DNA of 64,000 nt from positions 1,041-65,040 of the forward strand of contig CAIJXU010000089.1 in assembly GCA_903824725.1 (NCBI GenBank). Reading direction: 5' to 3'. Shown in pieces: positions 38,314 to 54,713 of this stretch (position 1 is the stretch's first letter; the number at the start of each line of letters is the position of its first letter). This stretch comes from an uncultured Bacteroidota bacterium. Its GTDB lineage: Bacteria; Bacteroidota; Bacteroidia; Chitinophagales; Chitinophagaceae. The notes beneath the pieces are model-generated. The model worked only from the letters and a program-made list of their open reading frames with translations. It searched no databases and was not told the origin of the DNA. The translations under genes and the position numbers were made by a program.

Positions 38314-39387
38314 TTAATCCTTAGGCGTTTTTTTATGCCAATAAGAAGCAAGGATGGAACCTGTGATATTCATAAAAGGTCCAAAAACAGCAGGGGCCAA
38401 TCCCATTGTGGCTGCTTTGCCAAGCTTTTCAGCAAGTCCCGATGCTAAGCCTCCATTTTGCATACCTACTTCAATAGCAATTGTACGACTATCTCTTTCG
38501 CCCAATCTAAATAAGCGTCCAATCCAATAGCCAAATAAATAGCCAGATGTATTATGAATAAAAGAGACTAAAATCAATAAGGGTCCAATAGTTAATAAAC
38601 TTTTACTACCAGCGGCAGTAATAACAATGATGATGGTGGCAATTCCAAACATGGATACCGATGGCATTAATTTATCAAGCCAAGTGGTTTTACCTTTGAT
38701 ATATCTATTGAATAATAATCCTAAAGTAATGGGGACAATCACTATTTGTAAGATATGAATAAACATATCCGTTGCCTTGATTTCAATAAACTGTCCTCCT
38801 AATACTTTCATTAAAAAAGGTGTTAAAAAAGTAGCAAGGATGGTGCTGACACTCGTAAGGGTAACCGATAATGCTAAATTGGCTTTAGCTAAATAGGACA
38901 TCACATTGGAGGCAAGCCCACATGGCATGGAACCAATTAATACAATTCCTGCTGCAATTTCAGGTTCAAAATGAAACAGCTTAGCCAAAGCGAAACCCAT
39001 TAAAGGCATAAATGTAAAGTGACCTGCGAGTCCAATAATGACTGCCTTTGGTTGTTCGGCCACTCTCTTGAAATCCTTTAATCCAATTTCGGTTCCCATT
39101 CCAAACATAATAATTTGGATCAATGGCGTAATTAAGCCCTTTAATTTAAAATCGCCTACTTTTAAAAAATACTGAGGATAATTCAAAGTGATACATACAC
39201 ATGCAAGTATCACCATGGTGAAACTTAGTCCTTGGAGCGTTTCGGTTCCTTTAACTCCTAAGCTTAAGGATAAAAATCCTAATGATACAATCAATCCTAA
39301 ATAATCAGTGATGTGTAAAAGGTATAAAATACCTGATAACGCAAATAATATTAAGGAAATAACTAAAAATGGTTTGTAATTTTTCAT
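38314..39387 (-). CDS. Bile acid:sodium symporter (BASS) family transporter
   Basis: IMFGMG, PCGLASNVMSYLAKANLALSV, TIAIEVGMQNGGLA. Confidence 0.92.
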   Translation of the reverse strand: MKNYKPFLVISLILFALSGILYLLHITDYLGLIVSLGFLSLSLGVKGTETLQGLSFTMVILACVCITLNYPQYFLKVGDFKLKGLITPLIQIIMFGMGTEIGLKDFKRVAEQPKAVIIGLAGHFTFMPLMGFALAKLFHFEPEIAAGIVLIGSMPCGLASNVMSYLAKANLALSVTLTSVSTILATFLTPFLMKVLGGQFIEIKATDMFIHILQIVIVPITLGLLFNRYIKGKTTWLDKLMPSVSMFGIATIIIVITAAGSKSLLTIGPLLILVSFIHNTSGYLFGYWIGRLFRLGERDSRTIAIEVGMQNGGLASGLAEKLGKAATMGLAPAVFGPFMNITGSILASYWHKKTPKD

Positions 39388-39410
39388 TTGATATTTTAAT
39401 TAAGGGATGC

Positions 39411-40328
39411 TTACCAAGTTCTTTTTTCTAAAAACTTTTCGAGCGCTTCTTTTGTAATAACGGGTTCATTGGGGTGTGCACTAATCCAATTTAAAAAGGA
39501 AGTTTTTATTTCTTCTGTCCATTGGTTGTCAATTTGACCCGCATTGTATTTGCCAGATTTTAAAACATCTTTTGAAAAGCGATCTCTAACAGAAATAAAC
39601 TCCGAAGTAGCGACTACTTTTTCAGCCATATGTGCTGGGATAAATAAGACGCCTTCTCTTTCAGATAATACTAAATCACCTGGCATAACTATAGCAGCAC
39701 CAATGCGAATGGGGCCATTTAATCCAATGAGTACTACTTCCTCTAAAAAGGAGGGATGAAAATCCCTTACATAGGCATTGAAACCTTTTATTTGTTCTAG
39801 TCCTGATAAGTCCCTAGCAGAACCATCAAAGATGACACCATTTCCTGTTTTATTAAAAATAGATGTACTTAAGTTATCGCCTACTAAAGTGCCTTGTGCA
39901 ATTTTTCCAAATGATTCGGCAACATACACATCTCCTTTTTGAAGAATTTCAATTGGCCAAGCATTCGTATTCCCTTTTCGTCCTTCTTTTTTACCACGAT
40001 CTTTAATAAGCGCTTCAATGTCAGGTCGAGTAGGGCTGTACTTAGCTGTGACAGCTCTTCCTACTATAGGAACATTGTCATGAACCATTTTCCAATTTCC
40101 TTCAAATTGATTGTTGTATCCTTCATTATGTAAAACCTGCCAAGCTTCCTCAATACCTATTTTTTTTGCACGAGCAATTAAGTCATCGCTAATTTTAGGG
40201 CGACCATCCTCAAATCTTTCGCCTTTCCATTGTGATGTTAAATATTCTAATTCCGATTTAGGGAATAATTGAGCTTGGGCAAAATAAAAACAACTTGACA
40301 ACAATAAAAGCAATCCTATTTTTTTCAT
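39411..40328 (-). CDS. RraA/HMG-aldolase-like protein with Sec signal peptide
   Basis: Likely start MKKIGLLLLLSSCFYFAQAQ at 40328. VGRAVT, LVGDNL, DGSARD, VMPGDLVLSEREGVLFIP. Confidence 0.82.
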   Translation of the reverse strand: MKKIGLLLLLSSCFYFAQAQLFPKSELEYLTSQWKGERFEDGRPKISDDLIARAKKIGIEEAWQVLHNEGYNNQFEGNWKMVHDNVPIVGRAVTAKYSPTRPDIEALIKDRGKKEGRKGNTNAWPIEILQKGDVYVAESFGKIAQGTLVGDNLSTSIFNKTGNGVIFDGSARDLSGLEQIKGFNAYVRDFHPSFLEEVVLIGLNGPIRIGAAIVMPGDLVLSEREGVLFIPAHMAEKVVATSEFISVRDRFSKDVLKSGKYNAGQIDNQWTEEIKTSFLNWISAHPNEPVITKEALEKFLEKRTW

Positions 40329-40341
40329 ATTTATTTTTAAT

Positions 40342-41559
40342 TTAAACCTTAGCACCTTCTAATATTTCTTTTAATCTTTTAGCAACAATTTTATCTTCCC
40401 CTTCTTGTAAAGACCATGCAGTAATACCAATATTATCTTTGCCACCAACTACTTCAATAGAAGGGTTACCATTGCGTAACTCAAGTTTCAGGGCTTCACC
40501 AGTTTTGCTAATTTTACTGTAATCAAAAGTAATATTTAATGTAGGAGTCACATTACCTAACACTGGTGTTGTTATAGTAGTGCTTACGCCAGGAACAGAC
40601 ATCGCTGCTGCTTGTATTTTTTTGATTCTTTCTAAAAATACAAGTGCTTCAGCATCATGATCAATTTTTACAAATTCCTCAACTGCAACCAGCATTCCTA
40701 AAATTTCTTCTTTGTTTACTTTCATTCCACGACCAATTGTTTCCCCGCGAGGAGGCATGGATAGTCGAGCTGCTTTAATTAAATCTTTTTTGCCCATTAA
40801 CAAGCCCGCACTTTGTGGTCCTCTTAATGCTTTACCGCCCGAAATGGCAACAAAATCAAAACCCATTTCATTAAAGCGCCATAAGTTACTTACGGGTGGC
40901 ACATCCGCTGCAATATCAATAGTGGTGGGAATGCCATATTGCTTTCCAATAGCGACCCACTCTTCATGTTGAATTTTACCTTTGTCAGATTGTACATGAA
41001 GAAAATGCATAGCTGCTGTATTTTTATTGATTGCATTTTTTAATTCTTCAACAGTTTCAATCATAATCACTTTTACACCTGTATTGGTTAATGCTTGATT
41101 ATATCCAATGGCATGTGCTTTTTGACAGATCACTTCTGTTTTCATTCCAGTGCCTTCTAATTTAGGAAGTTGCTTTACTTTAACAGGATCTAATCCAGTT
41201 AAAATTCCTGCCATTCCTAAAGTTAATGCTGCAAATGCGCCGCTTGTTACCACCACTGATTCTGCTTTGGTAATCTCAGCCAATCTTTCGCCCACTTTAT
41301 CTTGTATTTCATCTAGCATACAAAATTTATGGGAGGCTTGTCTGATTGCTTCTACTGTGGCTGGACGCATCAATGTTGCAGTCATTGCAGTATAGGTTCC
41401 AGCTGCATTAATAAAAGTGCGTACACCCAATTCAGCAAACAAATCACGACCTGCAGCTACAGCTAAAGGAGTAGCATTCGCACTTGTGATTCCACCAACA
41501 ATGGAGGCACCTGCAAGTGGGGTGATTGAAATATATTTTAAGAGGTCTCTGCGTTTCAT
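40342..41559 (-). CDS. SelA/DgaE-like PLP-dependent enzyme #1 with Tat signal
   Basis: Start MKRRDLLK at 41559. LGVRTFINAAGTYT, DIAAD, PLP-Lys motif SGGKALRGPQSAG, GRGMKVNKEE. Confidence 0.88.
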   Translation of the reverse strand: MKRRDLLKYISITPLAGASIVGGITSANATPLAVAAGRDLFAELGVRTFINAAGTYTAMTATLMRPATVEAIRQASHKFCMLDEIQDKVGERLAEITKAESVVVTSGAFAALTLGMAGILTGLDPVKVKQLPKLEGTGMKTEVICQKAHAIGYNQALTNTGVKVIMIETVEELKNAINKNTAAMHFLHVQSDKGKIQHEEWVAIGKQYGIPTTIDIAADVPPVSNLWRFNEMGFDFVAISGGKALRGPQSAGLLMGKKDLIKAARLSMPPRGETIGRGMKVNKEEILGMLVAVEEFVKIDHDAEALVFLERIKKIQAAAMSVPGVSTTITTPVLGNVTPTLNITFDYSKISKTGEALKLELRNGNPSIEVVGGKDNIGITAWSLQEGEDKIVAKRLKEILEGAKV

Positions 41560-41588
41560 GTTATTTATTTTAATTATAAAACCAAAAT

Positions 41589-42065
41589 TTAGTTTGCAAT
41601 AGCAATACAATCCATCTCAACCAATGAATTACCAGGTACACCACCATAAGTAGCTACTGTTGTTCTAACTGGAGGATTTGGGCCAAAACGACCTTTAAAT
41701 ACTTCGTTCATTTGTTTATAGTCGCCTAAGTCTGCTAAGTATACATTTACTTTCAACACTTTTTCCATAGAAGATCCAGCTTTAATTAATTCCTTTTCTA
41801 ATTCTTTTAAAACATGATCTGTATGCGCTTTAATATCTCCTTCAAAGTGAGCACCTTTTCCTGCTACAAAAACCATTCCTGCAAATTTGGTAGCGCCTGA
41901 AAAAAGCGGAATGTCTTGTTCAGTAGTTACGTTAAATACTTCTTTTCCTGATGCGTCAACTGAGGATTGAGTAGTGGATGCATTGGCGGCAATACTAGCA
42001 GTGGAAAGGCCAAGGAAGCCGGCAAACATTTTTTTAAAGATGGAGCGACGATTTTGAGTTTTCAT
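41589..42065 (-). CDS. RidA-family enamine/imine deaminase with Tat signal
   Basis: NRRSIFK...ANA signal, VLKVNVYL, MNEVF, PPVRTTV (catalytic Arg), VEMDCIA. Confidence 0.87.
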   Translation of the reverse strand: MKTQNRRSIFKKMFAGFLGLSTASIAANASTTQSSVDASGKEVFNVTTEQDIPLFSGATKFAGMVFVAGKGAHFEGDIKAHTDHVLKELEKELIKAGSSMEKVLKVNVYLADLGDYKQMNEVFKGRFGPNPPVRTTVATYGGVPGNSLVEMDCIAIAN

Positions 42066-42078
42066 TTTTTTATTTTTT

Positions 42079-43641
42079 TTATTTAAGTTCTACAATCATT
42101 TCAATTTCTACTGAGATATTATTAGGTAAAGCAGCTACGCCTACGGCCGATCTTGCATGCTTTCCTCTTTCTCCAAAAACTTCTACCATTAAATTTGAAA
42201 ATCCATTAATCACTTGTGGCTGTTGTACAAATGTAGGTTCCGAGTTCACTAAGCCCAATACTTTTACAATTCGTTTTACTTTATTTAAATCACCTAAATA
42301 GGCTTTCATTGTTGAAATCATAGAAATTCCAGTCAGTCTTGCTGCTGCCTGACCTTCCTCAATGGTCACATCCTTTCCTAAATGGCCATACATTTGTCCA
42401 CCTCCTGGTTTATCTGGACCATGACCTGATAAGTAAAGTAGTTTTCCTACTTGTACTTGCTTTACGTAGTTGGCGATAGGAGGGACCACTGGAATTAAAG
42501 TAATATTTGATTTTTTTAATCTTTCTTCAGGATTCACTTCCATGGGCTCATTAGAGAATACCAAACAAACCGGTGTTTTGATATTCATGTTTTGATAAGT
42601 CTCTGTTAATTTTCCTGTCGCATCATCAAAGGAAAAAATTTGTACTTTATCATCAGTTTGGCTTGCTACAAAAACAAAATTTCCTAAAGGGGTAAAACTA
42701 AAGTTGCGAGGTTTTTTTGCTACAGGTTGGTGATACGATTTAGTAAGTAAACCATCGGCGCCAATTTTAAAAATGGTTAATTCGTCGCTAGTCACCCTGT
42801 TGGTGGAAATAAGCCATTTGCCACTTGGAGAAATATGAATATCGCCACTTCCTTTGGGATCTTTAGTGCTGCTGGTGTCGGCAATAATGGTTTGAACTTT
42901 ATTGAATTTATTATCCTCAATTGAAAAAACATCTACAGTGCCCGACATTTCGCTAATTAAATAACCATGTTTCCCTGTGGCATCAAATACGAAATGTCTT
43001 GGTCCATTACCTGCAGTGATGGAAATGGCAGTATATTTTTCATCCACTAAGCCATCTGCATAAATTTTGTGTTGGTAAATTTTATCGCTGCCTAAATCAG
43101 TCACTAACAAATAAGAATGATCGTTACTTAGTACCACATTATGCGCATGTGAAGCTTCTTGCCTCGATTTAAGAATACTTGACCCATTGTATTTAATTTC
43201 CTGAGCAATAGGAAGCAAGGCGCCATCCATTGTTTTAAAAACACTTAAACTGCCTGAGTTATAATTAGCCGTATAAACAGTCTTACTTTCGGGACGATAA
43301 GTAATAAAGCAAGGGCCTGATCCTTTTATAAATGAGTTATTAATTTTTTCAAATTCATTATTGCTGTTTAATTGATAAGAAGTGACAGAAGAAGGTTCTT
43401 TGGAAGCTTCTGTTACGGCATACATTAATTTGCCTTCGTTGGCTAAAGTTAAGTAGGAGGCATTTTGATTTTCCTTTGTATATAACAATGTTGGTTTACC
43501 AGTAACTGCATTTACTGAGTAAACTTCAATTCCTGGATTTCCTTTTTGCGTATAAGAGCCTACAATCAATTGATATTGATTGGTGTCGGCAGGAAAAAAG
43601 GAAGCCAAATGGCTAAACAATAAGGTGGCAATAAAATTCAT
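42079..43641 (-). CDS. 6-phosphogluconolactonase-like beta-propeller fused to a C-terminal Rid (YjgF/UK114) domain
   Basis: VGSYT, ANYNSGS, SHAH, DLGSD, GPRH, PRNF lactonase motifs, then PIANYV, LSGHGP, HARSAVG, VEIEMI in the same frame. Confidence 0.87.
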   Translation of the reverse strand: MNFIATLLFSHLASFFPADTNQYQLIVGSYTQKGNPGIEVYSVNAVTGKPTLLYTKENQNASYLTLANEGKLMYAVTEASKEPSSVTSYQLNSNNEFEKINNSFIKGSGPCFITYRPESKTVYTANYNSGSLSVFKTMDGALLPIAQEIKYNGSSILKSRQEASHAHNVVLSNDHSYLLVTDLGSDKIYQHKIYADGLVDEKYTAISITAGNGPRHFVFDATGKHGYLISEMSGTVDVFSIEDNKFNKVQTIIADTSSTKDPKGSGDIHISPSGKWLISTNRVTSDELTIFKIGADGLLTKSYHQPVAKKPRNFSFTPLGNFVFVASQTDDKVQIFSFDDATGKLTETYQNMNIKTPVCLVFSNEPMEVNPEERLKKSNITLIPVVPPIANYVKQVQVGKLLYLSGHGPDKPGGGQMYGHLGKDVTIEEGQAAARLTGISMISTMKAYLGDLNKVKRIVKVLGLVNSEPTFVQQPQVINGFSNLMVEVFGERGKHARSAVGVAALPNNISVEIEMIVELK

Positions 43642-43854: not shown

Positions 43855-45111
43855 ATGAAAAAACTGTATTATTTATTACTTGTTTCATTGGTAAGCTGCT
43901 TGCAACTACAAGCACAAAATCCTGTATTTATTTACGATATACTCGTTAAAGGCGGCCGTGTCATTGATGCTAAAAACGGCATTGATGGCGTTATCGATAT
44001 CGCTATTAAGGAAGGTAAAATTTTTAAAGTAGATAAAAATTTAAATGCCAAAGATGCAAAACAACTGGTGGATGCAACTGGCCTTATCGTGACGCCAGGC
44101 TTGATAGATTTACATGCACATGTGTTTGCGGGTACGCAAGGGGATCATTATTTAAGTGATGGATTAAGTGCTTTAATGCCGGATGGTTATACATTCAGAG
44201 TTGGATTAACCACTGTTGTGGATTGTGGAGGTGCAGGTTGGAAAAGTTTTGCTACTTTCAAAAAAAATGTCATTGACGTTTCTCAAACAAGGGTACTTTC
44301 TTTTTTAAATATTGTGGGTGAAGGAATGCGCGGAGGAAACTATGAACAAGATTTAGCAGAGATGAATCCTAAGTTTGCTGCTAGTGCTGCAAAGCAATAT
44401 AAGGATTACATTGTTGGATTTAAATTAGCGCATTTTAATGGTGAAGATTGGACGCCCACAGATAGAGTAGTAGAAGCTGGAAATTTAGCAGGGCTGCCTG
44501 TGATTATTGATTTTGGTGGATCTAAGCCCAATTTGCCTATACAAGATTTATTTTTCAAGCATCTAAGACCAGGTGATATTTACACGCATGCTTATGCAGC
44601 ATTGGGGGGCGCTAGAGAGGAAATTGTAGATGCACAAACAAATACTTTAAAGCCTTTTGTTTTAGAAGCACAAAAAAGAGGAATTATTTTTGATGTTGGT
44701 TATGGAGGAGCAAGTTTTAATTATTCTCAAGCGATCCCTGCATTAAAAGCGGGTCTATATCCTAATACCATTAGTACCGATTTGCATACGGGAAGTATGA
44801 ATACTTCAATGAAAGATGAATTAAGTGTCATGTCTAAATTTGTGAATATGGGCATGTCATTAGCCGAAGTAATTAAAGCAAGCACATGGACGCCAGCACA
44901 AGTAATTAATAGACCACTTCTTGGTAATTTATCGGTTGGATCTGAAGCTGATATTGCAGTACTCAATATCAGGAAAGGAAATTTTGGTTTTTATGATAAA
45001 ACCGGATTCAAATTAAAAGGCACTGAAAAATTTGAATGTGAAGTAACCATCAAGGGCGGCAAAATCGTTTATGATTTAAACGGACTTGCCAACCCCATCT
45101 ATGTAAAATAA
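43855..45111 (+). CDS. Secreted amidohydrolase/deacetylase #1 (COG3964, dihydroorotase-like)
   Basis: Signal peptide (..LQAQ), PGLIDLHAH, VDCGGAG, GFKLAH, PGDIYTH, ISTDLH. Confidence 0.88.
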   Translation: MKKLYYLLLVSLVSCLQLQAQNPVFIYDILVKGGRVIDAKNGIDGVIDIAIKEGKIFKVDKNLNAKDAKQLVDATGLIVTPGLIDLHAHVFAGTQGDHYLSDGLSALMPDGYTFRVGLTTVVDCGGAGWKSFATFKKNVIDVSQTRVLSFLNIVGEGMRGGNYEQDLAEMNPKFAASAAKQYKDYIVGFKLAHFNGEDWTPTDRVVEAGNLAGLPVIIDFGGSKPNLPIQDLFFKHLRPGDIYTHAYAALGGAREEIVDAQTNTLKPFVLEAQKRGIIFDVGYGGASFNYSQAIPALKAGLYPNTISTDLHTGSMNTSMKDELSVMSKFVNMGMSLAEVIKASTWTPAQVINRPLLGNLSVGSEADIAVLNIRKGNFGFYDKTGFKLKGTEKFECEVTIKGGKIVYDLNGLANPIYVK

Positions 45112-45113
45112 AT

Positions 45114-46871
45114 TTATTCTTTTCTCAATCCCAGAAGTTGCATTTGTTTCATCTTGATTAATCTTAGTCTTTGACGAACAATTGTAACTTCTGTTTTACT
45201 TACAGAATCTGCCTTGTTTCCAAAATTGTGTCTTATATAACTTAGAATATTAGCAATTTCTATATCTGGTAATTGTGAAAATTTTGGCATCATGCCGGCA
45301 AAAGGTTGACCGTTAATTTTAATAGGACCTTCTAAGCCTCTAAGTAATACAGAAATCAATGTATCCTTGTTGCCGTTCACCCAATCTGATCCTGCAATAG
45401 AAGGGAATCTTGTTCCATCTCCCTGTCCGTCTTTTTGGTGACAGGCACGACAGTTGGTTTGATATAGTTTTTCACCACCAATGCTTACTTTACCTCTTTC
45501 TAAATTATCTAAAATGGGATCTGGATTTTTAACATACGTTCTGTTTTCTCTTTCTACCATCTTTGCTAAATTCTTTTGGGTAAATTCTTCTTTTTTACCA
45601 GTGAATTTTACGCGCCATATTTTTCCTTTTTCTGATTCTGAAATGTATAAGGATCCATCAGGGCCCTGAGCCAATCCCATAGGGCGGTATTTAGAATCTT
45701 TTGTATTTACTAAAGTGTCTCTTCCTGTAAATCCATCAGCGAATACTTCCCATTTTTGTGGTTTACCATTTACAAATGGAACAAAGGCTACAATATATCC
45801 AGCTTGCGGATAAGGGGCACGAATAGTAGATCCATGAAATGCAATAAATGCTCCATTTTTATAACGCGCTGGGAATTGATCTCCTGTATAAAATAATAAA
45901 TCATTAGGTGCGAAATGGCCAGGGAATCCTACAATGGGTGTTTCGATGGCAGTATCTGTATTTTCAATGATTCCATTTCCACCATATTCAGCATTGCGCA
46001 TTACTTTTCCTTTTAGTTGGTCAAAGTAATAATAAGGCCAACCTGCATTTGCGCCTGGTTTTAATTTGTAAAATGCTTCAGAAGGTAATAAAGCACTTTG
46101 CCATTCATTATAAAATTGAGGCCAAGTATTGACTAATCCATCTCTGCCATGTCCTACGCAATACAATGAATTATCCTGTGTGTTCCAAGTCATTGCTACC
46201 AAACTTCTTAAACCAGTAGCCACTTTTATACCATCTGTTGTTCTAAATTGATTTAATTTATTTTCATCAAACATCCATACGCCACCATTGGAATCCAAGA
46301 TTGGACAAGGGTTCATACCAGGAGAGCCTGGTAATCTATTTTCAACTTGACATGCATCAGATGGAGCGCCAAAGGGGACAAATATATGTCCCTTACCATC
46401 AAATGCTAAAGGCTTTCCATCATGTTCTCTTCGTTGACCACTATCTATAACAATAAATTCTGGGGGTCCTTGTGGTACCATAAATTTGCTGTCAAGTTTA
46501 TAGCGATATACTAACATTTCGGAACTAGTATATAAATACCCATTATGTATACGCATACTAGTAGCATAGGATCCTTCTCTTTTTATTGGGCCAAAATTTT
46601 TAATAATATCTGCACGGCCATCTTTATTTTCATCTCTTAAAACATAATTCATTCCGTCCTCTATAAATCGATTTGCCTTTACATATATATCACCATTATC
46701 ATTCACTGCTAAATGTCTTGCCTTGCCTGGAAGACTATCAACCACGACCACTGCTTCAAAACCATCAGGCATAATCAAGCCTCCGTTTTTTTCACTCATA
46801 AAGTTCACACAACTCGTTAAAAATAAACTCATTGTGGCAATCAATACAAGGGGAGATTTTTTTATTCGCAT
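45114..46871 (-). CDS. PQQ-type glucose/sorbosone dehydrogenase beta-propeller fused to cytochrome c; lipoprotein
   Basis: Lipobox LTSC, ATGLRS, GWPYYY, GHFAP, AFHGS, RPMGLAQGPDGSLYIS. C-terminal CRACH heme motif and MPKF axial Met. Confidence 0.87.
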   Translation of the reverse strand: MRIKKSPLVLIATMSLFLTSCVNFMSEKNGGLIMPDGFEAVVVVDSLPGKARHLAVNDNGDIYVKANRFIEDGMNYVLRDENKDGRADIIKNFGPIKREGSYATSMRIHNGYLYTSSEMLVYRYKLDSKFMVPQGPPEFIVIDSGQRREHDGKPLAFDGKGHIFVPFGAPSDACQVENRLPGSPGMNPCPILDSNGGVWMFDENKLNQFRTTDGIKVATGLRSLVAMTWNTQDNSLYCVGHGRDGLVNTWPQFYNEWQSALLPSEAFYKLKPGANAGWPYYYFDQLKGKVMRNAEYGGNGIIENTDTAIETPIVGFPGHFAPNDLLFYTGDQFPARYKNGAFIAFHGSTIRAPYPQAGYIVAFVPFVNGKPQKWEVFADGFTGRDTLVNTKDSKYRPMGLAQGPDGSLYISESEKGKIWRVKFTGKKEEFTQKNLAKMVERENRTYVKNPDPILDNLERGKVSIGGEKLYQTNCRACHQKDGQGDGTRFPSIAGSDWVNGNKDTLISVLLRGLEGPIKINGQPFAGMMPKFSQLPDIEIANILSYIRHNFGNKADSVSKTEVTIVRQRLRLIKMKQMQLLGLRKE

Positions 46872-47041
46872 AAATATTTTTTATTATTCTCTTTTATAAC
46901 ATAGTAAATCTAAGAAATTATTTTCATTCAAATCTTGTATATTTTATACATTTTGGATGAATTTAGGTGCATAATTTTTAGATCATGGTGTTCTAAATTT
47001 GACGTATATTCATATAAGGAATAAAACAATATTTGTTGGTG

Positions 47042-47076
47042 AAAAAAGGGTTTAGTATTCACTAAATCCTTTTTTG
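47042..47076 (+). promoter_or_regulatory. Terminator-like hairpin inside the 5' leader of the SelA-like #2 operon
   Basis: AAAAAAGGGTTTAGT-ATTC-ACTAAATCCTTTTTT, located between the -7 promoter TAAATTTG (46994-47001) and the ATG at 47108. Confidence 0.55.
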
Positions 47077-47107
47077 CATTTTATTAAAAATATAAAATTT
47101 AAAAAAT

Positions 47108-48316
47108 ATGAAAAGAAGAGACTTACTAAAATTAGCAACGGTACTTCCTATTGGAACTGGCGTTGTATCGGGACTCATTCCTGTTTCTGCTTTTGCAAAA
47201 GCAACTGTAGCAAAACGAGATATCTTAAAAGAATTAGGCATTCGCACTTTCGTGAATGCAGCTGGAACTTATACAGCCATGACGGCATCCTTAATGCATG
47301 ATGAAGTAATTGAAACAATTAAGGAGGGTGCTAAGCAATTTGCAATGTTAGATGAAGTGCAAGATAGGGTGGGTGAAAAAATTGCTGAATTATGTCATGC
47401 CGAAGCAGCCACTGTAACTGCAGGATGTTGGAGCGCTTTAGTTTTAGGAATGGCGGGTGTACTAACAGGCATGGATATGAAAAAAGTGGCACAGTTACCC
47501 GATGTAACTGGAATGAAAGCAGAAGTGATTGTACAAAAAGGACATAATATTGGATATGTACATGCTTTAACGAATACGGGTGCAACCATAGTTGAAATTG
47601 AAACAGTGCAAGAGTTGGAAAAAGCCATTAGTGAAAAAACGGCGATGATGTGGTTTTTAAATTCGTATGCGCCTTCTGGAAAAATTCAACATGAAGAATG
47701 GGTAGCGATTGCTAAAAAACATAAAATACCTACCATGATTGATATGGCTGCAGATGTACCACCGGTTTCTAATTTATGGAAATACAATGATCTTGGTTTT
47801 GATTTAGTATGTGTATCTGGAGGTAAGGCCATCAGAGGTCCACAAAGTGCTGGTATATTAATGGGTCGCAAGGATTTAATAGCAGCTGCGCGATTAAGTG
47901 CACCTCCTCGTGGTGGAAATATTGGACGAGGCATGAAAGTAAATAAAGAAGAGGTATTGGGTATGTATGTGGCGCTCGAAAAATATATTAATCAAGACCA
48001 TGACGCAGAATGGAAAATGTGGGAAGGTAAAATTGATTCTATTGCAAAGTCGGCATCTTCAATAACCGGCGTTACTACCGAAGTATCGGTTCCTCCAGTT
48101 GCCAATCATACCCCTTTACTTTTTATTAAGTGGGATGAAACTAAAATTAAAACCACTAATAAAGATTTGATGTTAAAATTACGAAATGGCAGTCCTTCCA
48201 TCGAAGTGATGGCCAATGGAACAGGCATCAATATCACCGTCTTTATGTTAAAGGAGGGCGAGGAAAAAATAGTAGCAAAAAGAGTAAGAGAAGAATTATT
48301 ATCAGCAATGTCTTAA
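47108..48316 (+). CDS. SelA/DgaE-like PLP-dependent enzyme #2 with Tat signal
   Basis: MKRRDLLK signal, LGIRTFVNAAGTYT, DMAAD, SGGKAIRGPQSAG, GRGMKVNKEE. Close paralogue of 40342-41559. Confidence 0.9.
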   Translation: MKRRDLLKLATVLPIGTGVVSGLIPVSAFAKATVAKRDILKELGIRTFVNAAGTYTAMTASLMHDEVIETIKEGAKQFAMLDEVQDRVGEKIAELCHAEAATVTAGCWSALVLGMAGVLTGMDMKKVAQLPDVTGMKAEVIVQKGHNIGYVHALTNTGATIVEIETVQELEKAISEKTAMMWFLNSYAPSGKIQHEEWVAIAKKHKIPTMIDMAADVPPVSNLWKYNDLGFDLVCVSGGKAIRGPQSAGILMGRKDLIAAARLSAPPRGGNIGRGMKVNKEEVLGMYVALEKYINQDHDAEWKMWEGKIDSIAKSASSITGVTTEVSVPPVANHTPLLFIKWDETKIKTTNKDLMLKLRNGSPSIEVMANGTGINITVFMLKEGEEKIVAKRVREELLSAMS

Positions 48317-48336
48317 TTTATTAAAAAATAATACAG

Positions 48337-49590
48337 ATGAAAAAAATTATTATCGCGCTGGCTTGTTTAGTCATGATTGTGTTAAATACAAATGCACAAG
48401 CTTATCAAATTGTGATCAAAGGTGGTTTAGTGATTGATCCAAAAAACGGAATCAATGAAGTAATGGATATTGCTATTCAAGATGGTAAAATTGCAAGTGT
48501 TGCAAAAAATATTGATGCAGCGAATGCAAGACAAGTCATTAATGCAAAAGGATTAATAGTTGCGCCAGGATTGATAGACATACATGGTCATGTATTTGCT
48601 GGAACGCAACTTGATCGAGGGTTAAGTGATGGCAATAGTGCATTAATGCCAGATGGTTATACTTTTAGAGTAGGGGTGACTACCATTGTAGATTGTGGAG
48701 GAGCAGGTTGGAAGAACTTTGCTGTGTTCAAAAAAAATGTAATTGATGTTTCTCAAACAAGGGTATTGTCTTTTTTGAATATTGTAGGAGAGGGAATGCG
48801 CGGCGGTCCTTATGAGCAAGATTCAAGAGATATGGATCCTAAAATGGCTGCCTTAGTTGCAAAACAAAATAAAAAAGATATTGTTGGATTTAAGGTAGCA
48901 CATTATGAAAATGCAGAGTGGGTTCCAGTAGATAATGCAGTGACTGCTGGCAAATTAGCAGACATTCCTGTGATCGTTGATTTTGGCGGCGACGATACGC
49001 ATGCGCCATTGTCAATTCAAGATTTATTTTTTAAACATTTAAGACCCGGCGATATTTACACGCATACTTTTACTGAATTACAAAGAAGGGATCCCATAGT
49101 CGATTTTAGTTCTCGACAATTAAAACCTTTTATCAAGGACGCGCAAGCAAGAGGCATTGTTTTTGATGTTGGATTTGGTGGTGCAAGTTTTGCATTTGAT
49201 CAAGCCTTACCAGCTATTAAAGCAGGTTTTTATCCTAATACAATTAGTACGGACTTACATACAGGCAGCATGAATAATGCAATGAAGGATATGTTAAATG
49301 TGATGTCAATATTTATGACAATGGGAATGGATGTTCCTTCTATCATTAAAGCAAGTACTTGGTCACCTGCTAAAGCGATTAAGCATGAGGAGTTGGGTAG
49401 TTTGTCGGTAGGATCTGCAGCGGATGTAGCGATACTAGGCATCAGAGAAGGTAATTTTGGGTTCTTTGATCGTATCGGATATAAAGTAACTGGCAAGAAA
49501 AAATTTGAATGCGAAGCCACCATCAGAAATGGTAAAATGGTATACGATTTAAATGGTATCACGACTCCAATTTTATTGCTTTCTAAATAA
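48337..49590 (+). CDS. Secreted amidohydrolase/deacetylase #2 (COG3964)
   Basis: Signal peptide (..TNAQ), PGLIDIHGH, GFKVAH, PGDIYTH, ISTDLH. Paralogue of 43855-45111. Confidence 0.88.
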   Translation: MKKIIIALACLVMIVLNTNAQAYQIVIKGGLVIDPKNGINEVMDIAIQDGKIASVAKNIDAANARQVINAKGLIVAPGLIDIHGHVFAGTQLDRGLSDGNSALMPDGYTFRVGVTTIVDCGGAGWKNFAVFKKNVIDVSQTRVLSFLNIVGEGMRGGPYEQDSRDMDPKMAALVAKQNKKDIVGFKVAHYENAEWVPVDNAVTAGKLADIPVIVDFGGDDTHAPLSIQDLFFKHLRPGDIYTHTFTELQRRDPIVDFSSRQLKPFIKDAQARGIVFDVGFGGASFAFDQALPAIKAGFYPNTISTDLHTGSMNNAMKDMLNVMSIFMTMGMDVPSIIKASTWSPAKAIKHEELGSLSVGSAADVAILGIREGNFGFFDRIGYKVTGKKKFECEATIRNGKMVYDLNGITTPILLLSK

Positions 49591-49643
49591 AATGGGTGAG
49601 GGGGCGTGAAAATGTGTAAAATTAAAAGTAGATTGCTATTGAT

Positions 49644-50657
49644 ATGCAAGCAGAATATATTTTATGTTGTGACTGGGGAACAACCAGCTTTCGATTAAGA
49701 TTAGCTACTATAAATGGGGAAGTACTTTCTGAAATAAATTCTGAAAAGGGCATCTTGTTTTTTTATAACGAATGGCTAACAAAAAAGGACAAGGATACGG
49801 AACATCGTTTTCGTTTTTTCTTACAGTATATTCAATCGCAGACAGGATTATTACAGCCCCCCTTAAAATTGGAGCTTACTACTTTGCCGATTGTCATTTC
49901 GGGAATGGCTATTTCATCTATTGGAATGATGAATATGCCTTATGAATATTTGCCTTTTTCTGTTAATGGCACTTCAGGCTTTGCATGTCAATTTCAAGAA
50001 AATGGAGCGCCCATTATATTAATTACAGGAGTGAGTGGAGAAAATGATTTAATGCGTGGAGAGGAAACGCAAATGGTTGGATTGTTTCATACACCTGAAT
50101 TAAAAAGTAGTTTACCCCAAAATGGTATTTTTGTTTTACCTGGCACCCATTCAAAACATGTAACGATTGCAGATGCTAATATAATATCCATTAAAACTTT
50201 TATGACAGGTGAATTATTTAGCCTATTAATGGAAAATGGAACTTTATCAAAATCGATACAATTTATTCATTCCGATAAAAATGCAGACCCTGTAAATACA
50301 GCGGCATTTAAAAAAGGGATCCATGCGTCAAAAACGGATTCCTTATTACATTCCTTATTTCAAATAAGAGTTAATGATATACTTGCTAAATCAAGTAAAG
50401 AAGAAAATTTTTATTATTTAAGTGGTTTATTAATTGGCAGCGAGTTTAATTATTTAATAGACAATCCGGAATTGTCCAAGCTTAATAAATTAGTCATTTG
50501 TTGTACTCCTTATTTTATACCTTATTATAAAACGGTACTACAGGAATTGGGATTATACGAGGGGGCTATTTTTATAGATCCTTCTTTATTTGATAAAGCG
50601 ACCGTAGTAGGACAATTAACAGTTTATAAAAAATATATTCAATCCAAACATTCATGA
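49644..50657 (+). CDS. dgoK: 2-dehydro-3-deoxygalactonokinase
   Basis: DWGTTSFR, DLMRGEETQ, LPGTHSKH, TFMTGELF, YLSGLLIGSE. No signal peptide. Confidence 0.88.
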   Translation: MQAEYILCCDWGTTSFRLRLATINGEVLSEINSEKGILFFYNEWLTKKDKDTEHRFRFFLQYIQSQTGLLQPPLKLELTTLPIVISGMAISSIGMMNMPYEYLPFSVNGTSGFACQFQENGAPIILITGVSGENDLMRGEETQMVGLFHTPELKSSLPQNGIFVLPGTHSKHVTIADANIISIKTFMTGELFSLLMENGTLSKSIQFIHSDKNADPVNTAAFKKGIHASKTDSLLHSLFQIRVNDILAKSSKEENFYYLSGLLIGSEFNYLIDNPELSKLNKLVICCTPYFIPYYKTVLQELGLYEGAIFIDPSLFDKATVVGQLTVYKKYIQSKHS

Positions 50658-51298
50658 GTCAATCCGCTTTTTCATGGGACTTATTTAATGCAATGCCTTT
50701 AGTAGGCATATTGCGAAATGTAACTGAAGATGATGTTCATTTTATCCTGCCAATATTTAAAGAAGCTGGATTTACAACACTCGAAGTCACACTTAATACA
50801 CCGGGTGCTTTAAGTATGATAAGTGCATTAGCGTCACAAAATAATGGGACATTAAATATTGGGGCGGGCACTGTTTGCAGTATGAGTGATGTTGATGAAG
50901 CTTTGGCAGCCGGCGCCTCTTTCATCGTAACGCCCATCGTTAAAAAAGAAGTCATAAAAAAATGTGTCGATAAAGGAATACCTATTTTCCCTGGTGCATT
51001 GAGTCCTACCGAAATTTTTGAAGCTTGGGAATTAGGGGCTTCCATGGTTAAATTATATCCAGCATCGGCAGTTGGGGCTGCTTATGTTTCTGCTATTTTA
51101 GCACCCATGCCTGCCATTAAAATAATGCCAACCGGGGGGATACATATAAGTAATATGCTCTCCTTTATGAAATCGGGTTCGGCAGCACTTGGTATCGGAT
51201 CAGAGTTGTTTGATAAAAAAATAATTCAAAATAGAGATAAGGAAGCTTTATTGAATCATTTTAAATTATTCACGCAACAAATGCAATTATCCAAATAG
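50654..51298 (+). CDS. KDPG/KDPGal aldolase (Eda/DgoA family)
   Basis: GILR, LEVT, IGAGTV, FIVTP, PGALSPTE, VKLYPA, MPTGG. Overlaps the dgoK stop. Confidence 0.9.
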   Translation: MSQSAFSWDLFNAMPLVGILRNVTEDDVHFILPIFKEAGFTTLEVTLNTPGALSMISALASQNNGTLNIGAGTVCSMSDVDEALAAGASFIVTPIVKKEVIKKCVDKGIPIFPGALSPTEIFEAWELGASMVKLYPASAVGAAYVSAILAPMPAIKIMPTGGIHISNMLSFMKSGSAALGIGSELFDKKIIQNRDKEALLNHFKLFTQQMQLSK

Positions 51299-51309
51299 CC
51301 ATTTATTAA

Positions 51310-52575
51310 ATGAAAAAAATAAAAAACTATAGGTGGATTATTATAGCTCTATTATTTATTGCAACTTGTATTAATTATTTAGATCGACAAATCATTGGAT
51401 TATTAAAACCAATTTTAGAAAAAGAGTTTAGTTGGACGGAAACCAATTTTTCACATATTGTCATGGCCTTTACAGCCGCATATGCAGTGGGCTTATTAAT
51501 TTCGGGAGGATTAATTGATAAAGTAGGTACTAAAATAGGCTATACAGTGACTGTTATTATTTGGAGTACAGCGGCCATGTTTCATGCCCTTGCAAAATCA
51601 GTTTTTGGTTTTAGTGTTGCTCGAATATTTTTAGGGATTGGGGAGGCTGGTCATTTTCCTGCAGCAGTGAAAACAGTCGCAGAGTGGTTTCCTAAAAAAG
51701 AACGTGCCTTGGCTACTGGCATTTTTAATGCAGGTACAAGTGTGGGGGTGGTTATTGCATTATTCATTACTCCTTATATATATGTTCAATTTGGGTGGCA
51801 GGCGGTATTCTGGATTACGGGGGCGTTGGGATTTTTGTGGTTAATCGCCTGGTTGTATTTTTATGAAATTCCTGCAAAGCAAAAACGGATCACCGAGGCG
51901 GAGTTGGCTTTTATCGAATCCGATCAACAAAGTGAAACCATTACCCAAAAGAATATTCCATGGCGTCAGTTGTTTACTTATAAACAAACATGGGCTTATG
52001 TGGCGGGTAAGTTTTTAATTGATCCCATTTATTGGTTTTTCTTATTTTGGTTGCCTTCTTATTTTGCAACTACTTTTCATATTGATTTAAAAAAACCAAG
52101 TGTTGAATTAATGATCATTTATGCTTCTACTACAATAGGAAGTGTTTTAGGAGGTTATTTGTCATCCCATTTAATAAAAAAAGGTTGGCGCATTTTAAAT
52201 GCAAGACAAACTGCTTTATTTATTTTTGCAATCATTGAGTTATCTGTAATTCTCGCTCAGTTTGTTACCAATGTATGGGTGGCAGTTGCTTTAATTAGTT
52301 TAGTGATTGCAGTACATCAAGCCTGGGCCACTAATATATTTACAATGGCTTCGGATATGTTTCCAAAGGAATCGGTAAGCTCTGTGGTGGGCATCGGTGG
52401 TATGGCAGGTGCCATTGGTGGTATTCTATTTCCAATGTTAGTGGGCTATTTATTAGATACTTATAAAGCCCTTGGTCATATTGAATTTGGATATAATATC
52501 TTATTTACTATTTGTGGTTGTATGTACTTGTGTGCATTCACTATTATTCACTTACTAATTCGAAAAATACCCTAA
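51310..52575 (+). CDS. MFS sugar-acid transporter (ExuT/ACS-like)
   Basis: INYLDRQ, GEAGHFP, EWFPKKERALATGIFNAG, DPIYWFFLFWLP. Confidence 0.9.
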   Translation: MKKIKNYRWIIIALLFIATCINYLDRQIIGLLKPILEKEFSWTETNFSHIVMAFTAAYAVGLLISGGLIDKVGTKIGYTVTVIIWSTAAMFHALAKSVFGFSVARIFLGIGEAGHFPAAVKTVAEWFPKKERALATGIFNAGTSVGVVIALFITPYIYVQFGWQAVFWITGALGFLWLIAWLYFYEIPAKQKRITEAELAFIESDQQSETITQKNIPWRQLFTYKQTWAYVAGKFLIDPIYWFFLFWLPSYFATTFHIDLKKPSVELMIIYASTTIGSVLGGYLSSHLIKKGWRILNARQTALFIFAIIELSVILAQFVTNVWVAVALISLVIAVHQAWATNIFTMASDMFPKESVSSVVGIGGMAGAIGGILFPMLVGYLLDTYKALGHIEFGYNILFTICGCMYLCAFTIIHLLIRKIP

Positions 52576-52627
52576 ATAATTAAAAATATTTCTTACCTTA
52601 TATTCTTATCATTCTAAATCATAACCT

Positions 52628-54235
52628 ATGAAAAGACGACACCTTCTTAAAAGTTTATCCATCCTGCCTTTTTCAGCCGTCTTGCCTACAAAACTTTTTA
52701 GTAAACCCGATGCAACTGCATCTATTGTAGAAGAAGGCGATAATATTTTTAGATCCATAGGAGTGGAGCCCTTAATTAATTGTAGAGGAACTTTTACAAT
52801 CATTGGGGGTTCTATTGAGCGCCCTGAGGTGCGCGCAGCAATGGAAGCGGCCGCTCATAATTTTGTGCAATATGATGAATTAGCTGATGCAGTACATCAA
52901 AAAATTGCCGAAGTGACACAAGCGCCTTGGGCATTAGTGTCTGCAGGTTGTGCAGCAGGCATGAAGCATGTGACAGCTGCATGTGTAACTGGAGGCAATC
53001 CTGAAAAATTGATCGCTATTCCTAATTTAACAGGTTTTGAAAAAACAGAAGTGATTATTCCTGCAGGATCAAGAAATGTGTATGATCATTCTATCCGAAA
53101 TATAGGTGTTACTATTATAGAAGTAGCTACGCCTGAAGAATTAGTGAAAGCAGTAAATAAAAAAACAGCTATGATTTATATGATGGCCGATCATCCTGAT
53201 AAAAATGATGCGCCATTATCATTAGTAAATATTGTTCGACTTACTAAATTACAAAACATTCCCATCTTAGTAGATGCAGCAGCCGAAGTATTGACCATTC
53301 CTAATATACATTTGGAAAGAGGGGCGCATATGGTCGCATATAGTGGTGGTAAAGCAATTTGCGGACCTCAATGTGCTGGCTTTGTAATTGGTCAAAAAGA
53401 TATTTTAATGTCTGCATGGCAATCAAGTGCACCGCATCATGGTCCATGTCGCGATAATAAAGTAGGTCGTGAAGAAATGTTAGGTATGCTCGCTGCTATC
53501 AAAGCATGGACAACAAGGGATCACAAACAAGAATGGCAAACTTGGCTATCTTGGTTGGATTTAATTTCTAAAAAAGTAACTAAAATTCCAGGCATCAGTA
53601 CCAATGTTTTTGAAACAACGGATTATTCAAATCGTTCACCAGTTTTAAGAATTATATGGGATCCAGCGCAATTTAATATAACAGGAGAGGAAGTCGCAGA
53701 GGAATTTGGGCGTAAAAAGCCGCGCATAGCTATTGGTAGTATGAATAAGGATAAGATGACGGGTTTGACGGTGACCACAGGGCAAATGCAACCAGGAGAA
53801 GCCGCATTAGTAGCAGATCGTATTTTTAATTTCATGTCTCAGACAAGGACTGCAAAAAATAATGATTTAAAAGCACCATCGGTTACTGTCAATGGTACTT
53901 GGAATTTTGACATTCAATTTTTTAGCAGTAAATCCGTGCATCAAATTACACTTAGTCAGGATGGCAATTGGTTGCAAGGAAATCACAAAGGTGAGTTTTC
54001 GACAAGAGAGTGTACGGGAACCATCGAAGGCAATGAAATTAAATTAAGAAGTCAAGAACGTCAGGCAGCTGATAATATTACATTCATTTTTTCTGGAACA
54101 GTAGTGGGGGATAAGATGTCAGGGAATATTCATATGGGCGAATACAGAACAGCTACTTTTACCGCAGTTAAAACTGAAAGTAAAAGGCCGAAACAAAAAA
54201 TATTTGTTCCACAAGGACCACCATTGGCTACCTAA
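52628..54235 (+). CDS. SelA/DgaE-like PLP-dependent enzyme #3 with Tat signal and extra C-terminal beta domain
   Basis: MKRRHLLK signal, IGVEPLINCRGTFT, VDAAAE, YSGGKAICGPQCAG, RDNKVGREE. About 120-aa extension starting near VNGTWNF. Confidence 0.87.
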   Translation: MKRRHLLKSLSILPFSAVLPTKLFSKPDATASIVEEGDNIFRSIGVEPLINCRGTFTIIGGSIERPEVRAAMEAAAHNFVQYDELADAVHQKIAEVTQAPWALVSAGCAAGMKHVTAACVTGGNPEKLIAIPNLTGFEKTEVIIPAGSRNVYDHSIRNIGVTIIEVATPEELVKAVNKKTAMIYMMADHPDKNDAPLSLVNIVRLTKLQNIPILVDAAAEVLTIPNIHLERGAHMVAYSGGKAICGPQCAGFVIGQKDILMSAWQSSAPHHGPCRDNKVGREEMLGMLAAIKAWTTRDHKQEWQTWLSWLDLISKKVTKIPGISTNVFETTDYSNRSPVLRIIWDPAQFNITGEEVAEEFGRKKPRIAIGSMNKDKMTGLTVTTGQMQPGEAALVADRIFNFMSQTRTAKNNDLKAPSVTVNGTWNFDIQFFSSKSVHQITLSQDGNWLQGNHKGEFSTRECTGTIEGNEIKLRSQERQAADNITFIFSGTVVGDKMSGNIHMGEYRTATFTAVKTESKRPKQKIFVPQGPPLAT

Positions 54236-54275
54236 TTAATTAATTTTCAATATTGGTTCAATAAAATTTTATAAA

Positions 54276-54713
54276 ATGAAGTTTATCAAATTAACATTAA
54301 GCATTCTTTTAACTGTATTGTGTTTAAGTACACAAGCGCAATCTAAAAAAGAACAACAATTAACAGCTACGATTGAGCAATTGAGACTTGCTTTAATAGA
54401 TCCTATTGAAGCTACATTAACCCAACTTACTTCCCCTAAATTATCTTATGGTCATTCTGCTGGCGTGGTTGAAGATCAAAAAACTTTTATTGCCAATTTA
54501 GTCAATGGTAAAAATGATTTTGTTTCTATAGACCTTGCCGATCAAACCATGGACCTTGATAATAATATTGCCTATGTTAGGCATACATTTAATGCGGTTA
54601 CTTCTACCGATCCTAAAGTAGCACCTATTAAATTAAAGATATTATATGTATGGATTTATGAAGGGGGCGCTTGGAAGCTAAGGGCTAGGCAAGCGGTTAA
54701 GATATTAATATAG
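54276..54713 (+). CDS. Secreted NTF2-like / DUF4440 protein
   Basis: Signal peptide (..TQAQ), LSYGHSAG, VW..GGAWKLRARQA. Confidence 0.82.
   Translation: MKFIKLTLSILLTVLCLSTQAQSKKEQQLTATIEQLRLALIDPIEATLTQLTSPKLSYGHSAGVVEDQKTFIANLVNGKNDFVSIDLADQTMDLDNNIAYVRHTFNAVTSTDPKVAPIKLKILYVWIYEGGAWKLRARQAVKILI

Follow-up and report, generated by a model that had tools for sequence, protein, structure and literature searches.

We analysed a window of 64,000 nucleotides from an uncultured Chitinophagaceae bacterium (contig C89 of the source genome G000, which is 2.2 Mb and 87% complete), in which a cluster at positions 38314-54713 encodes pyridoxal 5'-phosphate (PLP) enzymes, metallo-amidohydrolases and Rid proteins with export signals. 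From the sequence comparisons we propose that, in the periplasm, these proteins turn N-acetylhexosaminic acids that carry no phosphate into 2-keto-3-deoxyhexonates with release of acetate and ammonia, and we assign a probability of roughly 0.58 to this reading. The deacetylation by the amidohydrolases and the deamination by the PLP enzymes with Rid appear probable, the preceding oxidation of N-acetylhexosamines (HexNAc) by a propeller-cytochrome c protein is tentative, and the periplasmic location of the predicted pathway is highly probable. An ordered periplasmic route had been put forward in an earlier note on this DNA (the original prediction), and it gained independent sequence support because the phosphate-binding arginines of the Salmonella enzyme DgaE are lost, the export signals are kept, lactonases and oxidoreductases were recruited repeatedly beside the core genes, and a Granulicella cluster contains a homologue of a HexNAc oxidase. 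The chemistry from the acid to 2-keto-3-deoxygluconate (KDG) 6-phosphate (KDG-6-P), on the other hand, was already published for the Ong pathway (PMC9537276).

The three PLP proteins scored 131-155 bits against NF047797 (cut-off 600) and 140-187 bits against TIGR01437 (cut-off 385), while the SelA model TIGR00474 (cut-off 268) gave 25 and 39 bits for two of them and no match for PLP enzyme 3. They were therefore rejected both as DgaE proper, whose phosphate-binding arginines and His-163 they also lack, and as the selenocysteine synthase SelA. The model of PLP enzyme 2 (predicted local distance difference test score, pLDDT, 90.7) has as its nearest folds 7LC0 (DgaE) and 8T7J (Cap15), with a template modelling (TM) score of 0.81 each, and the alignment of DgaE to the window protein starts only at query residue 38. 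In a profile alignment of 46 homologues, the PLP lysine (Lys240 in enzyme 2) is invariant, whereas an arginine within one position of DgaE Arg301, Arg332 and Arg346 occurs in 0, 1 and 0 sequences, respectively. These arginines form the phosphate site of DgaE in a docking model (PMC9529869), and their loss fits an unphosphorylated substrate. Mapped through the profile alignment, DgaE His-163 belongs to an inserted stretch with no counterpart in the PLP family profile, and any histidine in that loop is found in 7/46 homologues, including PLP enzymes 1 and 3 of the window. The H163A mutant of DgaE releases the enamine into solution (PMC9529869), so the absence of His-163 would imply free enamine release and would explain the need for a co-exported Rid. 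Thus the residue pattern fits PLP enzymes that act on an unphosphorylated substrate and need Rid. The Rid homologues keep the P-x-R-[TS] motif in all 43 cases, and the Rid domain fused to the lactonase shares ~50% identity with the Rid encoded next to SelA-like genes in rhizobia, whose plasmids have Rid, PLP enzyme and amidohydrolase as a trio, without signal peptides and next to ABC transporters. The short and long PLP paralogues are 33-34% identical and occur together both here and in Granulicella, and PLP enzyme 3 forms one clade with the long Granulicella paralogue (support 96, in a quick tree), suggesting that the pair is old and that the two specificities probably differ. The 130-residue tail of PLP enzyme 3 matched no named family, and an Atlas search with it gave scores <0.9.

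Both amidohydrolases exceed the NF006689 cut-off, and their structure matches in a profile search are 8JE0, the best and titled an amidase, 2OGJ and 2ICS. Of the residues that we take to form the binuclear metal site of COG3964/PRK09237 (HxH, Lys, His, His, Asp), five, namely H83, H85, K186, H243 and D306, are present in 44/44 homologues, and the remaining His is replaced by Asp or Glu in all of them. D-aminoacylases match residues 19-85 only (E ~6e-6). The COG3964 member Atu3266 is said to have weak N-acetyl-D-Ser/Thr activity and better esterase activity. The structure 2OGJ is described as not being a true dihydroorotase (PMC12524618).

For the location of the pathway, export signals were scored by simple motif rules rather than SignalP, as a twin-arginine (RR) motif or a hydrophobic N-terminus. 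The RR motif of the twin-arginine translocation (Tat) system was found in 123/127 PLP and 41/42 Rid homologues and was kept in 78/83 PLP proteins of metagenome loci, and a hydrophobic N-terminus was found in 105/112 amidohydrolases, 20/21 dehydrogenases, 8/8 RraA and 8/8 DUF4440 proteins; the same rules gave no signal in 15 DgoK or 16 Eda homologues. As background, an RR motif within the N-terminal 30 residues is present in 40 of the 1887 open reading frames (ORFs) of the genome, of which the cluster contributes four, and TatC is encoded in G000. These conserved motifs make the export of the proteins that carry them likely, as originally predicted, except that the lactonase-Rid fusion has an atypical N-terminus and its export is uncertain.

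The candidate dehydrogenase keeps its CxxCH motif in 9/9 homologues, and its model (pLDDT 65) best matches 6JT5 (E 6e-14), followed by 6I1T, 2G8S and 1CQ1, so that a quinoprotein sugar dehydrogenase propeller is matched by a low-confidence model; a direct PDB search with the sequence matched the cytochrome domain only. The propeller fold and the cytochrome c domain of the predicted pyrroloquinoline quinone (PQQ)-type dehydrogenase were thus recovered, while the PQQ label comes from the low-confidence fold match and no pqqC gene was found. A PF03070 protein is present in 4/25 carriers and was not found in G000 (87% complete). Elsewhere in the genome (G000:C70:46014-47706), a histidine/tryptophan gene run includes another propeller of the GSDH type that is 46% identical and whose cytochrome c is encoded in an overlapping ORF of its own.

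The best clue to the substrate comes from a single genome. On a plasmid of Granulicella tundricola, the genes for a TonB-type receptor, RraA, a short PLP enzyme, RidA, a long PLP enzyme, an amidohydrolase, a lactonase, a berberine bridge enzyme-like (BBE) oxidase, a small Tat protein and the glycoside hydrolase (GH) GH35 follow one another. The oxidase matches the N-acetyl-D-hexosamine oxidase 7ZZK (NagOx) with E 4e-162 (next match 1e-72), and the alignment shows that both FAD-linking residues are kept and that six of the nine residues listed for the N-acetyl pocket (PMC9850908) are identical, the changes being Ser122 to Thr, Leu251 to Met and Gln381 to Ala. NagOx has a kcat/KM of ~6-9 x 10^5 for GlcNAc and GalNAc and <100 for glucose and galactose (PMC9850908), and such an oxidase beside a lactonase suggests HexNAc as the substrate. 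A plasmid search for a NagOx homologue returned Granulicella only (E 1e-80), and the idea that NagOx is enriched in cluster-bearing Bacteroidota was not borne out, with one distant match in 50 genomes. In locus L101 (18011-19971), a NagOx homologue without an evident signal peptide is followed by a 150-residue Tat-motif protein, possibly its export partner.

To describe conservation, we compared 80 genome loci, including 51 distant ones with a length of 12 kb or more; counts are lower bounds from 10 kb per side, and lactonases were counted apart from stand-alone Rid domains. The 51 distant loci contain an amidohydrolase in 42 cases, Rid in 37, a lactonase or GSDH-type dehydrogenase in 27 (SMP-30 lactonase 16, GSDH-type dehydrogenase 14), DUF362 in 19 and SusC/D in 17; the exits for 2-keto-3-deoxy acids are fewer (RraA 8, DgoK 3, KdgK 2). 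Lactonases of two unrelated families and unrelated oxidoreductases were recruited repeatedly beside the core, and the paralogue number in a single locus reaches four for the PLP enzymes and five for the amidohydrolases. When 250 Bacteroidota genomes were sampled evenly, the PLP family was present in two and the amidohydrolase subfamily in three, including both PLP-positive genomes, whose neighbours are the same as those in the window. The check on neighbourhood conservation across Bacteroidota named in the original prediction therefore comes out in its favour, and the locus is patchy, since only 2/18 other genomes of a genus sample encode a genuine counterpart of PLP enzyme 1 and the family as a whole occurs in the 2/250 of the phylum. 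Gene orders vary: G144 combines SBF, RraA, Rid, PLP, amidohydrolase, Tat lactonase, SusCD, dehydrogenase, long PLP and two more amidohydrolase genes, Chondrinema has a minimal run (ECF-FecR-SusCD-RidA-PLP-amidohydrolase-RraA), and Thalassospira has RidA and a PLP gene with a NagZ-like GH3. The 84 neighbours scanned in high-GC metagenome loci, most of them unrelated or unassigned, also include Tat DHDPS-family proteins, a PIG-L deacetylase and a quinoprotein dehydrogenase-cytochrome c, and an estimated ~13000 metagenome stretches fit the family patterns. Cultured carriers are Granulicella tundricola, Cyclobacterium, Larkinella, Dyadobacter, Daejeonella and Chondrinema.

Some neighbours of the core deserve a separate record. 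Tat-motif DUF362 proteins lie beside it in 20/80 loci, mostly where a GSDH-cytochrome c gene is unseen (the DUF362 loci are L015, L022, L024-L031, L033, L035, L038-L041, L047, L051, L052, L062 and L077); one scanned DUF362 protein has an Ig-like tail, and several of these loci abut rnf-like genes. Near Rid and the PLP gene, two loci (L163:8193-9197, L170:7901-8986) encode DHDPS-family proteins with a Tat motif, by family a possible second exported aldolase. Tat-motif enolase-superfamily acid-sugar dehydratases occur near the core at L020:17142-18383, L066:17101-18342, L034:1224-2708 and L073:17947-19188, and the L073 protein scores above the galactonate dehydratase cut-off.

In the proposed route, the substrate would enter through SusC/SusD in the relatives of this bacterium and by another path in the source genome. 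The propeller-cytochrome c lipoprotein would oxidise GlcNAc, GalNAc or both to the lactone with PQQ that is probably scavenged, the lactonase would open the lactone, and an amidohydrolase would remove acetate. A PLP enzyme would then eliminate the C3 hydroxyl and, without His-163, set free an enamine that Rid would hydrolyse. The resulting keto-deoxy acid would be imported by the major facilitator superfamily (MFS) transporter and processed by DgoK and the aldolase, and KDG could also pass through KdgK and Eda, which form an operon on contig C85 of G000; alternatively, the RraA-like protein would cleave the keto-deoxy acid outside the cytoplasm and the BASS transporter would take up the keto acid. 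With two or three paralogues for each step, both gluco- and galacto-configured substrates are likely served. On the side of this alternative exit, the SBF transporter gene is present in 9/51 distant loci and directly follows RraA in L014 and L026, and the RraA-like protein matches 5X15 and 3NOJ in the PDB and has an intact G-D-x20-R-D, which we take to be the RraA/HMG-type aldolase motif. A complete non-phosphorylative Entner-Doudoroff-like route from HexNAc to pyruvate outside the cytoplasm is an extension that we consider unlikely; in it, the PLP lyase, RidA and the aldolase would all be exported, and in SusCD loci that have no glycoside hydrolases some PLP paralogues may in addition eliminate C3 substituents, which may be a sugar, lactyl or sulfate, and thereby serve as lyases of oxidised beta-1,3-linked or muramic substrates.

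The original prediction took DgoK as a sign of the galacto series, and this inference is weak. KdgK and Eda on C85, together with a best DgoD match of 102 bits in G000 (cut-off 311), favour 2-keto-3-deoxygalactonate (KDGal) as the product. This argument is weakened by contig C1 (G000:C1:17030-20504), where a second IlvD/Edd-type dehydratase could supply KDGal from galactose; with the adjoining short-chain dehydrogenase/reductase (SDR) and SMP-30-like lactonase it likely forms an oxidative arabinose/galactose module. The cluster aldolase passed the general Eda model and missed the KDPGal-specific NF006600, and loci other than the window carry KdgK, the neighbour of the core in three, or only RraA. 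Coverage of both gluco- and galacto-configured substrates is the likeliest case, and a galacto-only specificity is rather improbable.

The same genes underlie the alternative that survives best, an unlikely one, in which the C1 dehydratase supplies a galactose (De Ley-Doudoroff) module made up of DgoK, aldolase and MFS transporter. It is compatible with our reading of the core, says nothing about the PLP substrate and would remove the galacto argument only. The gene order on C1, DgoK in 4 sampled genomes that lack the PLP family, and enolase-family acid-sugar dehydratases near the core in 7/80 loci are in line with it. DgoK is, however, embedded in the PLP/amidohydrolase run in Chitinophagaceae and Sphingobacteriaceae loci, and it was found in 25/50 cluster-bearing genomes against 5/250 sampled genomes, a contrast confounded by lineage; the 50 were our choice from the 80 loci and include five close kin that are not independent.

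Another alternative, which we regard as quite unlikely, is that the core has as its substrates beta-hydroxy amino acids in N-acyl or O-acyl form, for instance peptide-derived N-acetyl-D-serine or N-acetyl-D-threonine, yielding pyruvate or 2-ketobutyrate, with the sugar genes as passengers. Hydrolases of the CocE/NonD type (12/80 loci), gamma-glutamyltranspeptidase (4) and M81 (3) near the core would suit this chemistry, as would the rhizobial cytoplasmic versions, which lie beside ABC transporters with no sugar-acid kinase, and OngC deaminates D-Ser and D-Thr as well (PMC9537276). It leaves unexplained, however, the lactonases of two families, the sugar dehydrogenases, the hexosamine oxidase homologue and the DgoK, KdgK and aldolase genes.

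Similarly unlikely is the same chemistry on a C3-substituted or modified amino-sugar acid, from N-acetylmuramic acid (MurNAc) or sulfated or beta-1,3-linked HexNAc, or on that from N-acetylmannosamine (ManNAc) of sialic acid. SusC/SusD occur in 17/51 distant loci, yet the window cluster has no glycoside hydrolase; sulfatase and BNR-repeat proteins lie between the amidohydrolases and DgoK in L020 and L066; and the paralogue numbers given above would leave room for varied substrates. The GH35 by the Granulicella oxidase and the NagZ-like GH3 in Thalassospira point instead to hydrolysis first and plain HexNAc after, and mannosaminate and the DgaE substrate have opposite configurations at C2, which weighs against ManNAc. 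Finally, it is very improbable that the PLP proteins are Cap15-like oxygen-dependent decarboxylases, which reportedly make an amide from a beta-hydroxy amino acid, here to be hydrolysed by the amidohydrolase: 8T7J, titled an oxygen- and PLP-dependent Cap15, fits the enzyme 2 model as well as DgaE does and 8JE0 is titled an amidase, but the Rid neighbour in 37/51 loci fits elimination, Bacteroidales loci lie by rnf-like genes (labelled from sequence) of presumable anaerobes, and Cap15 has arginine at the three positions lost in the window family.

Several observations weigh against the proposed periplasmic conversion of N-acetylhexosaminic acids. The Cap15 fold is as near to PLP enzyme 2 as that of DgaE (TM 0.81), and the fourth presumed metal ligand of the amidohydrolases, a His in 2OGJ and 2ICS, is Asp in 39/44 or Glu in 5/44 homologues, a swap shared by the Granulicella amidohydrolase and not by that of Aminobacter. 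The dehydrogenase is only 13-17% identical to its fold matches (AA12 and Asd/sGDH quinoproteins), and pqqC (TIGR02111) was not found in G000, a genome 87% complete, with a model that was silent in the control too. The oxidase link is confined to one genome, no signal peptide is evident in the oxidase of Granulicella, and a NagOx homologue was found in none of the 80 genome loci and 79 metagenome loci, with a single 29% match in 50 cluster-bearing Bacteroidota genomes. Within 10 kb, lactonase and dehydrogenase are both absent from 24/51 distant loci, and none of RraA, DgoK and KdgK is present in 41/51. G015 has the left half of the cluster with no DgoK in the 35 kb examined, and G000 encodes NagB, so that it may not need an exported route for GlcNAc.

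The gene map of the window is given in Table 1. All 14 predicted ORFs in 38314-54713 are intact and their families agree with the original naming in the ORF listing and profile scans, and the family scans found no phosphotransferase system (PTS), DgoD or intact-sugar kinase among them, again as predicted. The limits of the cluster need widening: a CBM9-like gene on the left travels with it (the same position in G008 and G015, and homologues in 7/51 distant loci) and is probably a member, which makes 15 genes, and close relatives have four extra genes at 47013/47014. The dehydrogenase gene is on the minus strand, convergent with that of amidohydrolase 1. The nearest named loci in the search for related loci are metagenome-assembled genomes of freshwater Bacteroidota/Chitinophagaceae, and a protein search with the cluster proteins returned close relatives only. 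The cluster has the same GC content as the rest of the window and thus shows no sign of recent transfer. A promoter scan of the cluster found fewer sites than in shuffles. Contigs from two RNA runs cover 29/30 and 14/30 bins, and contig coverage of this kind cannot show transcription.

Table 1 Features of the cluster in the window (strand + or -; coordinates in nucleotides of the window).
Feature	Coordinates	Strand	Basis
Secreted CBM9-like protein, probable member	37534..38235	+	PF16011/PF06452
SBF/BASS sodium symporter, candidate 2-keto acid importer	38314..39387	-	PF01758; best NCBIfam PanS, below cut-off
Secreted RraA/HMG-type aldolase-like protein, candidate 2-keto-3-deoxy acid cleavage	39411..40355	-	PF03737
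DgaE/SelA-like PLP enzyme 1, Tat motif; likely start 41559	40342..41610	-	TIGR01437 167 bits, cut-off 385
Rid family enamine/imine hydrolase, Tat motif	41589..42065	-	PF01042
Seven-bladed lactonase fused to second Rid domain	42079..43641	-	PF10282 residues 25-362, PF14588 residues 373-511
Secreted COG3964/PRK09237 metallo-amidohydrolase 1, candidate N-deacetylase	43855..45111	+	NF006689 423 bits, cut-off 371
Lipoprotein-type propeller dehydrogenase (AA12/Asd-like) with cytochrome c, candidate aldose C1 oxidation	45114..46871	-	PF07995, PF00034
Junction; ECF sigma, FecR, SusC, SusD here in close relatives	47013..47014		blastn breakpoints, gene maps
15-pair hairpin, then T-rich tail	47042..47075	+	consensus match only
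DgaE/SelA-like PLP enzyme 2, Tat motif	47108..48316	+	model pLDDT 90.7, fold matches
Secreted COG3964/PRK09237 metallo-amidohydrolase 2	48337..49590	+	NF006689 422 bits; 63% identical to amidohydrolase 1
Cytoplasmic DgoK-family 2-keto-3-deoxyhexonate kinase	49644..50657	+	PF05035 173 bits; PDB 3T69, 3R1X
Cytoplasmic KDPG/KDPGal-type aldolase	50654..51298	+	TIGR01182 173.5 bits (cut-off 156); NF006600 159.6 (cut-off 207)
MFS sugar-acid transporter, D-galactonate/hexuronate type	51310..52575	+	TIGR00893 255 bits, below cut-off 395
Long DgaE/SelA-like PLP enzyme 3, Tat motif, 130-residue C-terminal domain	52628..54235	+	profile scan
Secreted DUF4440 (NTF2-like) protein	54276..54713	+	PF14534

The four extra genes, for an extracytoplasmic function (ECF) sigma factor, FecR, SusC and SusD, lie upstream of the PLP enzyme 2 gene in the gene maps of L001, L002, L012 and L092 (G008), and susC-susD is also found in L104. 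The block spans 7077 bp in L001 (2831-9907) and is cleanly absent from the window, with flanks 89-96% identical to the relatives, and blastn found it nowhere else in G000 (87% complete). Single contigs bridge the junction in 4/4 runs from four studies of lake and river samples, one of which may be the source sample; an assembly artefact is thereby ruled out and the short form of the locus is real. The hairpin in Table 1 lies just behind susD in the relatives, and consensus matches of this kind numbered 11 against 12.8 expected in shuffles. The fuller locus of the relatives is similar to a polysaccharide utilisation locus, while the window does not contain the tandem susC-susD and regulator by which such loci are recognised; family scans found no glycoside hydrolase among its cluster genes, and G000 encodes three GH20 and one GH18 elsewhere. 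In the G008 locus, amidohydrolase 2 is broken into two ORFs (L092:9393-10537) by a frameshift or assembly error. Beyond the cluster, a small SET-domain protein (37092-37502) lies between an rmlD-like gene and the cluster, in G008 as well, and a pentapeptide-repeat protein (55216-55782), with weak Qnr-family scores far below the cut-off, is present in none of the 80 related loci.

If the proposed route is true, it gives a function to two widespread mis-annotated families, the Tat 'selenocysteine synthases' and the secreted 'dihydroorotases', and extends elimination by PLP enzymes and the chemistry of RidA to the periplasm. Bacteroidota and Acidobacteriota of lakes, soils and sediments would then recycle amino-sugar carbon with ammonia released before uptake, and the cultured carriers make the pathway directly testable. 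Our literature search, which covers subscription journals poorly, turned up no publication that describes an exported route of SelA-like, COG3964 and Rid proteins.

Among known systems, the De Ley-Doudoroff (dgo) operon includes the dehydratase DgoD, whereas the window cluster has none. The GlcNAc route predicted for Natrarchaeobius resembles ours in that a DgaE homologue lies in chitinase clusters and an oxidative route is proposed, and differs in being hypothetical and cytoplasmic, with deacetylation first and a phosphorylated intermediate assumed (PMC12343721). The flavin oxidase NagOx of Ralstonia solanacearum (7ZZK; PMC9850908) catalyses what would be the first step; it is absent from the window, where its slot is taken by the unrelated propeller-cytochrome c protein, and its close homologue is in the Granulicella operon. 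The amidohydrolases are above the family cut-off of the COG3964 group that includes Atu3266 (2OGJ) and the EF0837 type (2ICS; NF006689), and the rhizobial members likewise sit with RidA and a SelA-like gene, whereas the window members add signal peptides and Asp for one His. With the Salmonella DgaABCDEF system (DgaE/DGL, EC 4.3.1.29; 7LC0/7LCE; PMC9529869), the PLP enzymes share the fold (TM 0.81), the PLP lysine and a presumed beta-elimination on hexosaminate; DgaE differs in acting on the 6-phosphate after PTS uptake, in having Arg301, Arg332, Arg346 and His-163, and in having no signal peptide. PTS genes were not found among the window genes or the recurrent neighbour families scanned.

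The closest parallel is the cytoplasmic Ong pathway of Pseudoalteromonas prydzensis, in which N-acetylglucosaminic acid (GlcNAc1A) is converted through glucosaminic acid (GlcN1A) and KDG to KDG-6-P by OngB, OngC and KdgK, and the RidA-family protein OngD is essential (PMC9537276). Its set of deacetylase, PLP deaminase, RidA and keto-deoxy kinase is matched in the window, and its GlcNAc1A is likewise unphosphorylated, with TonB-dependent uptake and ammonia released with KDG (PMC9537276, PMC12017989). The enzymes differ: OngB is D-aminoacylase-like and OngC is of fold type III, in contrast to the COG3964 proteins and the SelA-like proteins of fold type I here, which bear export signals; the Ong kinase is a PfkB-family KdgK, whereas the window has DgoK; and the Ong acid comes from chitin oxidised by lytic polysaccharide monooxygenase, whereas the window has a clustered dehydrogenase and lactonase. 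The window enzymes were rejected as OngB and OngC because the D-aminoacylase match is partial and PF14031, our choice of proxy for OngC, was not found in G000 (87% complete). As the conversion of GlcNAc1A to KDG-6-P, including the role of RidA, is already characterised, what is new here is the enzyme families and their location, and by analogy the window pathway likely functions in the manner of the Ong pathway, using enzymes that are convergent and exported.

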